The position numbers and the translations under genes are program-made. 64,000 nucleotides of DNA, from assembly GCA_951406725.2 (NCBI GenBank), contig OX597836.1, forward strand, positions 20,212,001-20,276,000, written 5' to 3'. The notes under the pieces were generated by a model that saw nothing but the letters and a program-made list of their open reading frames with translations, had not been told where the DNA came from and made no database searches. Shown here piece by piece: positions 151-61,300 of the stretch. This stretch comes from Octopus vulgaris (lineage: Eukaryota). Position 1 is the stretch's first letter, and each line of letters opens with the position of its first letter.

Positions 151-201
151 TTTGTTAAAATATTTTCTTCACTTTGAGACCACGACCTGTTCACTGACAA
201 A
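151..201 (-). ncRNA. Degenerate hammerhead-like motif with G3-C8 swapped core
   Basis: Minus strand: tttgtca-GTGAACA-g-gtcgt(9 nt)gtgaa-GAA-AATATT-T-taacaaa inside a ~190-bp element between (TA)n runs. Confidence 0.38.
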
Positions 202-1269
202 ACTTCGTGCTGCATCTCATATATATATATAAATATATATATATATATATATATATATGACGGAGAAACCAGGAAACTGGCTCTATGCTCCTTACAGCAT
301 AATGTGGACTAACCAGTCTGATGCAATCATTCAGACAATGTCTCCTGTTTTAGAACCCCTTCCTTCTTCCCTCCCATCTTGGAGGCCCTGTAAAGAGTCA
401 CGGACACAACCATTCCCTCTTGATTAAGAGATTAAAAGAAAAAGAAGCAATGACAACAAATCGAGTTACTTGGTAAACAAGTGCAACTCCAAGCAAGCTA
501 CTTGATTGTATTCAGTAAATGTATAATGTAAACAAAACCTGCCATGTTTTTAAGTCCAGAATAAAGTCACTTGGTAAACGAGTGCAGCTCTTTGGAGTGA
601 GTTTGATTATGTTCAGTAAAATGTACGATGAAAGTGAAACCTACTATTACCATACCATGAGTGCATGATACTGATATGTATAATTGTTACAAGTTTTGTT
701 TGTTAACGGAGACTTCAGTTGGTGTGGTGAAGTATTTAGTTCTACAGAACACCGAGTGCTTCCCACCCAAAATATGAGAAACTTAATGTTAGTATATGAA
801 AACATATTTAAACTTTCACTGTACAGGAATTTCACTAAGGAATGTGTTTGGCTACCAAATTATGTCAATGTTGACCTTTTTTTTTTTTACATTACATCAG
901 ATATGGTGTAGCCTGTTGTGTTTTGTTATGGGAATTTGTAAACAACTACACAGACTTTATAGAAATCTTATGTTGTTAAGCACTTGGCTCAAAAATATTG
1001 GGGGTCATTTATTCCAAATGCATTTAGGTTTTATAAACCTTCTGAACACTGATGCCCCTATTTTAATATTGAAGTACAGACATGGCTATAAAGGAAGATG
1101 CTTGCTTCCCAACCACATTGTTCCAGGTTCAATGGAAGAACATTGTAGAAAATGAAGGAGATTATATATTTTAGATTAAAAAAGAACTTTATCTTAATTT
1201 TGAAAAATAAAAGAAGTTTAAAAAAAAAGCAGCATTATTTATGAGATGACCCAATATCTTTGATTCTTT

Positions 1270-58300: not shown

Positions 58301-61300
58301 TTTACAACATACATTTCATTCCATTGTTCATCTAATCATGCAATTTTTTTTTTGTACTTTTTCCAGTTTACTCCACCTGTAAACCAGATTATTTTCAATG
58401 CACCAATGGGCGATGTATACCTTATGAACACCGATGTGATCGAGAGAATGATTGTCCTGATGGATCCGATGAGGTTGGTATGCTTCGCAATAATAAGTAT
58501 TGTTGGTGTTTGTGGAATGCAGGCATTGGTATAGTTGTGAGGTTAAGAAATTTGCCTCACAGCCATGTGGTTTCAGGTTCAGTCCCACTATATGGCACCT
58601 AGGGCAAGTATTTTTTACAATAGCCCTGATCAATGCTTTGAAAGTGAATTTGGTAAACAGAGAATGTATGTCCTTCGTGGAGGCACATAGACTAGTGGTT
58701 AGAGCAGCGAACTCGCCGTCGAGGGATCATGTGTTCAAATCTCAGACCGGGCGATGTGTGTGTTTATGAGTAAAACACCTAAGCTCCACGCGGCTCCGGC
58801 AGAAGGTAATTGCAAACTTCCGCTGACTCTTTCGCCACAACTTTCTGTAACTCTTTCCTCCTGCGAAGGACCGGCGTCCCGTCCAGGTGGGGAACCTATA
58901 TGCCAAGGAAACTGGGAAACCGGCCCTTATGAGCCAGGCATGGCTCGAGAAGGGAAACATCAATTATATATATATACACTAAACTGCCTACTTCCTCCCT
59001 CTACTTCTGTTTGCCTTCTTCAGCCATTCTGCCTTTAAATTTCACTGCATTATGATTTGAAATGTCAGATACTTATCTCTCTACCCTGATGATGGATCTA
59101 CCTAATGTTTATATGCTTCCACTACTGGTTGCATATATTAGACATTTTGTGAACTACATTTGACAACATTATGAATTAATTCCAAGCCCCCCAAAAACAG
59201 CTGTCGGACCTGTAATATCAAACAGCTGTCCTTAATTTTCTGTGCCTTTGTACTCTGTATAAGTTTGCTATGTTAATAAATATATACAAAGCTATATATT
59301 TACACATAAATATTCATCATCTGAACATTTTTAGTCTTTATTTTCTCTCTGTTTACATGTATATATATATATATATATATATATATATATATATATATAC
59401 ATACATATATATGTATGTATGTATATTTTGTATATCTAGCTTAAGCAGTCTTCTTTACTTGCATAATTCCATCTCTCACTCTCTCTGTATATATATATAA
59501 ATGGTTTCGGGTTCAGTCCCACTGCGTGGCACTTTGGGTAGGTGTCTTCTGCTATAGCCCCGAGCCGACCGGAGCTTTGTGATTGAATTCGGTAGGTGGA
59601 AGTTACTGCCGTGTGTGTATGTGTGCGTGTAGGTGCTTGTGCCTCTCCGAAAGAGAGAGAGGGGATGGTGGTGTGTGTGTGCGTGCATGTGTGAATGTGC
59701 TTGAAGCATTTGTTTATATTATGCACTGCCATGGTGAGTGATCATTCTGCACAATATAAGAATCCCTTATTTGAGGAATAAGGCCTAATGACAGGTAAAG
59801 CATCCAGCTACTAAATTCTACCTCAAAATCAATTCCCATCCAAGCTGTACTAAGCATGGAAAAATGAATGTTAAACAAAGAATTCTAGCATGGACTGTAA
59901 CTGTACTTGAGTGATATATAGACTTAATTCACTGTTTGATTTAACACCATCCCTACCAGGCCCGCAGGTACCTATAGAAGAGTGCACTCTGATGCAAAAA
60001 CTATCGGTGAAATACACCAAATCCTTGTAATGTTGCCACATTTTATGTTACTGTGTTTTTCTCTTTTTATTTCCTTGTATCAAATGTTCTTTTTTTTTCC
60101 CCCAGATGAATTGCAAATACCAGTGTGATCCAGGGCGAGAATTCAAATGTAAAAATTCTAGTATGTGCTTCCCATTGAATTTCCAATGTGATGGAACACC
60201 TAACTGTCCGGATGCTTCTGATGAACTTGGCTGCAGTAAGCTTTTTCTTCTCTAATTATGCTATAGATTTTCCTTTGTATCGAATTAAATTTTCTATCTT
60301 TTTATTGAATCAAAAAGATTCAACAAATAATCATACTGCTTTTCACATTTTATAATATACAATCCTGTTTTCTTTATATTTCATAGTTTAGACATGAAAT
60401 CTTAATCCTTTCATTACTGTATTTATTTTGAGATGCTCTGTGTTTCTTTCAATTACTTTAAATATAACAAAGAATTTAGTGTTAGAAACATAAATTGTGG
60501 CTTAGGTTTTAATTCAAAACTTATGAAAACAAGACATTTGTACTCAGAGCCAGAGCCGGTTTCAGTCAGGTTGGTATCAAAAGGGTTAAAGATTCACAAT
60601 TTACAATCTTGTTCTCTTAGATATATTTCTTGATTTAAAGTCATAGGCTTTAACATTTCATTATTTACAGACTTTATTTTGCACTATGTATTTTACAATT
60701 TTAGTTTCTTATATTTCAAAATTTTGAGACTTAATTTTTTTTACATTTCATAAGTAACTGTTAGGATTTCTTACATTTCATAATTAGTCATAAGTTATTA
60801 TATTTCATAATTCTCAGTGTTAGTGTCTTCCACTTCATAATTTCTGTTTTAGTGTCTTACATTTGTTAATTCACACTTTTACATTCATTCTTGTTTCAAT
60901 TAATGTCCATAAAAGAAGAAAATCAATTCACTAAAAGTCACAATCTGGATTTTTGATTTGATTTGTATATTTTAGTAGATACTGGAAACTTTGTAATGAT
61001 TTCCAACTAAATTCTTTTATTTTGTTTTGTGTCATCCTCCTGCAGATAGTACACGACATAGCTGTTCTAGTGATCATTTTACATGTCGATCAAACGGTCT
61101 TTGTATTCCAAGTGCTTGGAAATGTGACCATGAACCAGACTGTGACGACAATTCAGATGAAACTGATTGTAAGTAATTATTATTATTATATTTGTTTTTT
61201 TGTTTTTTATTTTTTTCTTTGGTTTTGGTTTTAGTCTATTCCCTCATTACTCTGTCACTTACCTCTACTCTCTTACCTGCCATTAATCACTCTAATGCTC

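Follow-up and report, generated by a model that had tools for sequence, protein, structure and literature searches.

Minimal hammerhead motifs at an octopus LRP-type receptor locus belong to unrelated short repeat families of likely Penelope-like origin

We analysed a window of 64,000 nucleotides (nt) of Octopus vulgaris DNA (assembly GCA_951406725.2, contig OX597836.1, positions 20,212,001 to 20,276,000, forward strand), which carries a receptor gene of the LRP type and in which an earlier note, made from the letters alone, had described eight type-I hammerhead ribozyme motifs. With a probability of about 0.82, these sites stem from independent insertions, most of them now decayed, of seven unrelated families of short elements with a minimal type-I hammerhead, likely derived from the pseudo-long terminal repeats (pLTRs) of Penelope-like elements (PLEs) and likely copied in trans. 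The elements are real and largely of a known kind; their core variants and long helix II arms appear to be the new part. Seven of the eight sites lie in real families, which we name after the positions originally given for them (151, 6164, 23755, 34707, 39241, 56326, and 59082). The eighth, at 14972, has one short relative, and the core at 6164 had been misplaced.

Motif searches against shuffled controls

We searched with a descriptor that combines paired core positions 3 and 8, GAAA, a palindromic helix III, UH, and helices I and II, used either strictly or with one core mismatch permitted, and shuffled sequence served as the control. In the window, the strict form gave one match (at 9339) against a mean of 0.0 in 20 shuffles, and the one-mismatch form gave three (9339, 39293, and 56330) against a mean of 0.05 in 20 shuffles. 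The genome searched comprises 2.8 Gb in 227 contigs, from which we sampled 60 evenly spaced 10-kb stretches (600 kb in total). Here the strict descriptor returned 19 matches against 0, 0, and 1 in the shuffles, and the one-mismatch descriptor returned 27 against 1, 0, and 1; 7 matches in each count come from a single tandem array. The motif is therefore far above chance. Two of the eight listed window copies pass the descriptor themselves; the others were confirmed through their families. Rfam Hammerhead_1 (RF00163), which the earlier note had named as a check, gave no support: no hammerhead was present among the 140 window matches at E ≤ 5 that we inspected, and the RF00163 threshold was not reached. 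Elsewhere in the genome, this model gave six matches among 73 scored candidates. Standard Rfam scans miss all of these window motifs. In 1.3 Mb of sampled sequence, 127 motif matches fell into 18 clusters, some of which are probably chance.

Seven families with a common fold

First-look searches of the genome returned 2,788 candidates for the 151 family, 1,043 for 6164, 1,103 for 23755, 4,922 for 34707, 1,203 for 39241, 1,445 for 56326, and 758 for 59082. We aligned the best 20 to 30 copies of each family, the window copy included, a choice that favours window-like copies. Among these aligned copies, the core was intact, meaning that the whole 11-letter core was present, in 19/20 copies for 151, 4/20 for 6164, 12/20 for 23755, 24/25 for 34707, 10/20 for 39241, 27/30 for 56326, and 9/20 for 59082. 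The 600-kb sample contained 11 matches to the 56326 family (2 of low identity), 9 to the 151 family in 5 stretches, 7 to the 34707 family in 5 stretches, and 3 to the 39241 family in 1 stretch; no match to the three families with long arms (6164, 23755, and 59082) was found in it. Scaled by 4,667, these counts suggest tens of thousands of copies each for the 56326, 151, and 34707 families, with a wide error.

Apart from their AT-rich tails, the seven majority sequences are dissimilar to one another, in agreement with the impression that the flanks of the sites are unrelated to one another. All seven display the same order of core, GAAA, self-complementary helix III, and position 17, and all keep G5, the pairing of G8 or C8, A9, GAAA, and a non-G at position 17. 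The letters differ in every helix across the families. Moreover, the majority sequences restore the core and helices that window copies have lost. The core is canonical in the majority sequences of 34707, 39241, 6164, 23755, and 59082 and variant in those of 151 and 56326. Helix I spans 4 to 7 bp in every family but 59082, and five families have a clean helix II. Helix III is an exact or single-gap palindrome in six families and a near-palindrome with G-U in one. The distance from A9 to G12 reaches 69 nt in 6164, 77 nt in 23755, and 107 nt in 59082, all three of them old families. When the families were pooled, 64 of 1,477 non-CpG core cells departed from the majority, compared with 1,246 of 15,866 elsewhere; this better retention of the core is suggestive only, since the copies are related and were selected by similarity.

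Altered core letters

We then counted exact core patterns over the whole genome. In the 151 family, G3:C8 occurred 5,588 times and C3:G8 once in the same context. The 56326 family had C4 in 4,747 motifs and U4 in 1,038. In the repeat of a coding family described below, U6 was present in 12,412 and A6 in 117 of the 12,529 motifs counted, and all four letters occur at position 7. Reversed-pattern controls gave counts of 0. The suspected non-canonical core variants are therefore genuine, with G3:C8, U4C, and A6U each established family-wide. U3:A8 was found in several sampled families plus a second coding family. U4C, which is natural in a viroid (PMC3088659), also appeared in repeats that have no relation to the 56326 family (sampled loci L222, L194, L009, and L271), which suggests that it originated repeatedly. 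Two copies of a further family (sampled loci L227 and L228) combine G3:C8 with A6G and have a perfect 6-bp helix II.

Affinity to Penelope-like elements

A 5′ inverted arm that lacks the 3′ tail has been described as an insertion footprint of PLEs (PMC8557442, section 6). A partial copy in inverted orientation preceded the main copy on its 5′ side in 15/25 loci of the 34707 family, 10/20 of 151, 8/20 of 39241, and 4/20 each of 6164 and 23755. In 34707 and 151, the inverted arm ends about 30 to 60 nt short of the 3′ end of the main copy.

A GIY-YIG fragment in the 600-kb sample led to a young coding family with 19,853 candidates, of which 145 scored candidates stood at ≥95%. Its 1,211-codon frame contains a reverse transcriptase (PF00078, E = 4.6e-8), a CX4CxxC linker, and a GIY-YIG domain whose match was under the cut-off (E = 0.006). 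Three of the four long copies bear a hammerhead at both ends. Judged by these motifs, the family is probably Neptune-type. Intact members were seen at sampled loci L267 to L270, with frames of about 1,200 codons in a pLTR-open reading frame (ORF)-pLTR arrangement, one of them tandem. The 56326 family is 66 to 71% identical to the 3′ repeat of this coding family in 25/30 loci. This homology, together with the inverted-arm footprint in five families, bears out the affinity to Penelope elements that had been proposed. A second coding GIY-YIG family (sampled loci L309 to L332) has many 781-codon frames, and its 3′ repeat bears a hammerhead of the U3:A8 type.

A relationship to a coding PLE was thus obtained for the 56326 family through its homology to a coding repeat; for the other six, the search among coding loci gave no parent. 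No recognisable ORF lay along the 5′ extensions of six families, and searching for the 151-family 5′ extension with a pattern gave no match. In the window itself, neither scanning for motifs nor tblastn queries with three PLE fragments uncovered a Penelope ORF, just as the earlier note had reported for reverse transcriptase and GIY-YIG frames.

The targeting of microsatellites, put forward as a general feature, holds for one family and partly for another. (TA)n lay no more than 40 nt from the 3′ end in 27/30 copies of the 56326 family and in 0 to 3 of the 20 to 25 best copies in each of the other six. Unselected copies of the 151 family frequently end at TA runs, as judged by eye. In the 34707 family, (AAT)n follows a tRNA-like head and precedes the hammerhead; it is therefore internal to the element, and we rejected it as an insertion target. 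The head contains A- and B-box-like words, with the B-box-like word before (AAT)n in 18/25 copies (by eye). Rfam gave no tRNA match for this head, and relaxed ARAGORN calls on it were inconsistent.

Proposed mechanism, cleavage, and RNA

According to our model, the families would be copied by a Penelope reverse transcriptase and a GIY-YIG endonuclease supplied from elsewhere. The source transcript would bind the Penelope protein and be reverse transcribed at a nicked target, which would be TA rich for the Neptune-related 56326 family, and insertion would often leave a 5′ inverted arm without the 30- to 60-nt tail. Two motifs would pair through helix III, because this helix appears too short to form alone, and would cleave after position 17; this reaction would be slow and might require bound protein. 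Source lineages would retain the fold, and inserted copies would decay. The presence of the motifs in the host gene would reflect their genome-wide density and not the gene.

Helix III alone formed no hairpin in any family (0.0), and its self-pairing energies ranged from −0.2 to −11.1 kcal/mol. These energies are consistent with the dimer model; cleavage as dimers is here a prediction from shape. Motifs of this kind have been reported to be inactive as monomers and weak as dimers (PMC4209133). In the Poseidon element of Anolis, cutting required protein and was regained in part in a C3G/G8C double mutant, and insertion in vitro was independent of cutting (PMC11167929).

RNA was examined in two raw RNA-seq runs of a related species for the 151 and 34707 families, with the 34707 head skipped as a repeat. 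Reads covered both families on both strands and mostly ran into unlike flanks. They show passenger transcription and say little on cleavage.

Evidence against the model and alternative explanations

Several results weigh against trans-copied pLTR derivatives with a maintained hammerhead. The 5′ inverted arm is rare in the 59082 family (1/20) and was found in none of the 30 copies of 56326. No coding parent was identified for six of the seven families among 30 Neptune-type and 30 GIY-YIG loci. The majority folds of 23755, whose helix II is unpaired at its foot, and of 59082, with a 2-bp helix I and a partly broken helix II, are imperfect, and the cores of 6164 and 23755 are kept no better than the rest of the repeat. 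U4C and changes of A6 are reported to lower activity (PMC3088659). The RNA-seq reads of the two families examined displayed neither end pile-ups nor unit-length circular joints, which such libraries show poorly. Finally, no family was demonstrated at 14972.

The families might instead be, for the most part, solo or 5′-truncated end repeats of coding PLEs and not independent non-autonomous elements. Most single motifs have been interpreted in this way (PMC4209133), some copies of 23755 and 59082 reach 150 to 400 nt further 5′ with ragged ends, and our sample of coding elements was narrow. However, no PLE frame lay within 1.5 kb of any best copy in six families. The 34707 family begins with its own tRNA-like head in 18/25 copies (by eye), and the 56326 family, which adjoins TA runs, has a 5′ end that is fixed and lies outside the query. 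As its 5′ end is fixed and it is just 68% like the coding family, the 56326 family is likely non-autonomous. The other six could be solo end repeats of unfound coding elements. Hence, of the claim that the genome hosts many distinct non-autonomous hammerhead-bearing families, the many unrelated families stand, and "non-autonomous" likely fits 56326 and may or may not fit the others. As an account of most families, we consider solo repeats a possibility to be taken seriously, at odds of roughly one in three. A somewhat more doubtful alternative is that the fold is kept as a signal for binding or folding with the Penelope protein and that the variant families no longer cut. The prevalence of U6 with any letter at position 7 in the most abundant coding family seen, and of C4 in the 56326 family, is what this would lead one to expect, and in Anolis mutating the hammerhead left insertion in vitro unaffected, and none of the reads terminated at the cut site (PMC11167929). 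G3:C8, on the other hand, is a compensatory swap that partly restores cutting, as expected under selection for catalysis, and the retention of the same core features in all seven majority sequences, from G5 through GAAA to position 17, also counts against this alternative. Equally tentative is the bolder idea that dominant Penelope lineages rewrote the core in three ways (G3:C8, U4C, and A6U), grew helix II arms of 69 to 107 nt, and still amplified to thousands because binding of the protein to the fold rescues or substitutes for catalysis. If this were true, the families would offer a natural set of variants in which to probe the function of the pLTR hammerhead.

The remaining alternatives are improbable to differing degrees. 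Membership among the non-LTR retrozymes, which would spread through abundant circular RNAs, had been raised in the earlier note, and a type-I motif within short non-coding repeats is compatible with it. In addition, the 34707 family forms a short tandem at one locus (L049), and another part of the genome contains a true tandem array of 359-bp units that is retrozyme-like, each unit having a canonical type-I hammerhead (sampled locus L177, 3082 to 4512, plus strand, with two copies on the minus strand). The seven families, however, consist of dispersed monomers or inverted pairs with only scattered short tandems among the best copies, and no unit-length back-joint was seen in the RNA reads of the two families examined. 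In the absence of head-to-tail arrays in these families we rejected the affiliation, and we regard it as improbable. Regulation of the host LRP gene through cutting of its pre-mRNA is far less credible. Five copies do lie on the strand of the gene (6255, 9339, 34712, 56330, and 59086), but two of these have broken cores and one has a helix I mismatch, no same-strand copy has a dimer partner, and the same families occur genome-wide; on these grounds we also rejected this explanation. Chance matches in AT-rich DNA are the least credible of all, even though the descriptor rejects six of the eight window copies, the bases at 6166 pair by accident, and Rfam reported no hammerhead. The shuffle controls, the family majority sequences, and the reversed-pattern controls at 0 refute chance for seven sites, and for the motif at 14972 chance is an unlikely possibility.

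Relation to known systems

Heterogeneous, mostly single hammerhead motifs number in the thousands per animal genome (Cervera and de la Pena 2014, PMC4209133), and many unrelated motifs in one locus are the expected look of a Penelope-rich genome. The minimal hammerheads of metazoan PLEs described there resemble ours in their short palindromic helix III, an extra base after A9, the G10.1-C11.1 pair (in four families here), the U3:A8 variant, and their occurrence as many heterogeneous families of mostly single motifs or opposite-strand pairs. The 56 representatives given in that article have C3:G8 or U3:A8 cores only, short helix II arms, and no cephalopod among them, whereas G3:C8, U4C, A6U, and arms of 69 to 107 nt are family-wide here. 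Neptune-clade PLEs (PMC8557442) share with the octopus elements the reverse transcriptase, a CX2-5CxxC linker, a C-terminal GIY-YIG domain, a pLTR hammerhead, a preference for (TA)n, and a tail accompanied by an inverted 5′ arm. A pLTR of this kind is homologous to the 56326 family, and the window elements are without an ORF. Poseidon of Anolis likewise has a pLTR hammerhead that is partly active as the C3G/G8C double mutant (PMC11167929). The swap is a laboratory mutant there, whereas it is natural in at least 5,588 copies here.

Non-LTR retrozymes (PMC7229834; bioRxiv 10.64898/2026.07.22.740005) are also short and non-coding with a type-I hammerhead and dispersed monomers. Their proposed origin is from PLE pLTRs, with monomer copies evenly dispersed. 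They are defined by tandem units and circular RNAs, neither of which was seen for these seven families. The SINE-like Sm-alpha and Sj-alpha elements of Schistosoma (PMC6765202) resemble the 34707 family in having a promoter-like head followed by a hammerhead, but in 34707 the motif is minimal, Rfam identifies no tRNA in the head, and the insertions bear the Penelope inverted-arm footprint. Among core variants, Perreault et al. (2011, PMC3088659) described U3:A8, U4C (in a viroid), a change at A6, and the U10.1-U11.1 mismatch that is present in our 6164 family. Their variants are rare single cases, and G3:C8 and A6U are absent from the passages of that article consulted here. The main text of a 2026 repeat annotation of O. 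vulgaris (PMC13282606) contains no occurrence of hammerhead or ribozyme. Literature on hammerheads in octopus and other cephalopods and on core variants, a scope that left aside the figures and supplements of Perreault et al. 2011 and the work of Lunse et al. 2017, yielded no natural G3:C8 or A6U families. The octopus elements allow a direct comparison of a compensatory swap (G3:C8) with damaging changes (U4C and A6U), one of them in an intact coding element. Lunse and colleagues reportedly presented many minimal hammerhead variants, which may include cephalopods or these cores. The hammerhead of Penelope elements is nearly universal, cuts poorly, and was dispensable for insertion in vitro (PMC4209133, PMC11167929).

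Individual sites in the window

The window copies are mostly decayed. The 151-family copy (G3:C8) occupies 27 to 222 on the minus strand, with the core at 194 to 188, GAAA at 167, a predicted cut after 158, and damage to helices I and II. The old 6164-family copy (6220 to 6383, plus strand) has a 69-nt helix II arm and GAAA at 6332; the family core position, 6255 to 6261, is broken here. The CUGAUGA at 6166, formerly taken as the core, lies outside this repeat, and the pairing drawn there is accidental. The old 23755-family copy (23692 to 24010, minus strand) has a 77-nt helix II arm, the core at 23855, and GAAA at 23771. The 34707-family copy (34607 to 34833, plus strand) consists of the internal (AAT)n, a canonical minimal hammerhead (core 34712, GAAA 34740) with one helix I mismatch, and a tail; an inverted piece of the tRNA-like head and junction of this family precedes it (34540 to 34606, minus strand). 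The 39241-family copy (39151 to 39452, minus strand) carries G8A in an otherwise canonical family core (39293) and an 11-nt near-palindromic helix III, and on its 5′ side lies an inverted-repeat stretch, a fold-back arm of unassigned strand (39427 to 39702). The 56326-family copy (56279 to 56460, plus strand), a U4C member shortened at its 5′ end, is placed between (TA)n runs, with the core at 56330 and GAAA at 56349. The old 59082-family copy (58990 to 59364, plus strand) has a 107-nt helix II arm, the core at 59086, and G12A at 59194.

Two sites had been missed. An older relative of the G3:C8 (151) family, 69% identical, lies at 9333 to 9504 on the plus strand, the strand of the host gene. 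Its motif (core 9339) is G3:C8, is the ninth site of standard order, and is the sole window copy that passes the strict descriptor. The second is an element with inverted ends next to the 56326 copy (55787 to 56265, minus strand), which contains a rewired hammerhead-like motif (55986 to 55914). Along the strand, its order is helix II, helix III, helix I, GAAA, and then CUGANGA; in eight distinct rows of the alignment all three helices pair, and each of them shows compensatory changes on both its sides.

The hammerhead-shaped motif at 14972 to 15018 (minus strand) has a canonical core, a perfect 10-nt palindromic helix III, a 5-bp helix I, and an unclosed helix II. A repeat family is unproven at this site: a genome DNA search returned the site alone, one pattern search gave one further copy, alike over 41 nt, and a second pattern search gave none. 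A genome search with 14900 to 15130 matched just an adjoining 48-nt fragment of another family (14917 to 14964), longer copies of which (sampled loci L077 to L095) appear to bear a hammerhead on the opposite strand.

The host gene lies on the plus strand, with exons encoding LDL-receptor A, EGF, and YWTD repeats. It is an LRP1/LRP2-type receptor, not resolved further; its best Protein Data Bank structure matches are LRP2, and the earlier name of LRP1 locus is therefore right as to the receptor type and not settled as to LRP1 itself. The first recognised exon is near 25,250, so the five sites on the left may lie upstream of the gene or within its early introns.

Repeats that recur in the sampled loci make up about 23 kb of the window. 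One very abundant short repeat, matched in more than 130 sampled loci and with no hammerhead seen in it, has copies at 3420 to 4330, 5490 to 5950, 19440 to 19870, 21140 to 21570, 35120 to 35620, and other places. Tandem units of 63 to 66 bp at 36299 to 36435, 39793 to 39963, and 52247 to 52462 are part of a dispersed repeat.

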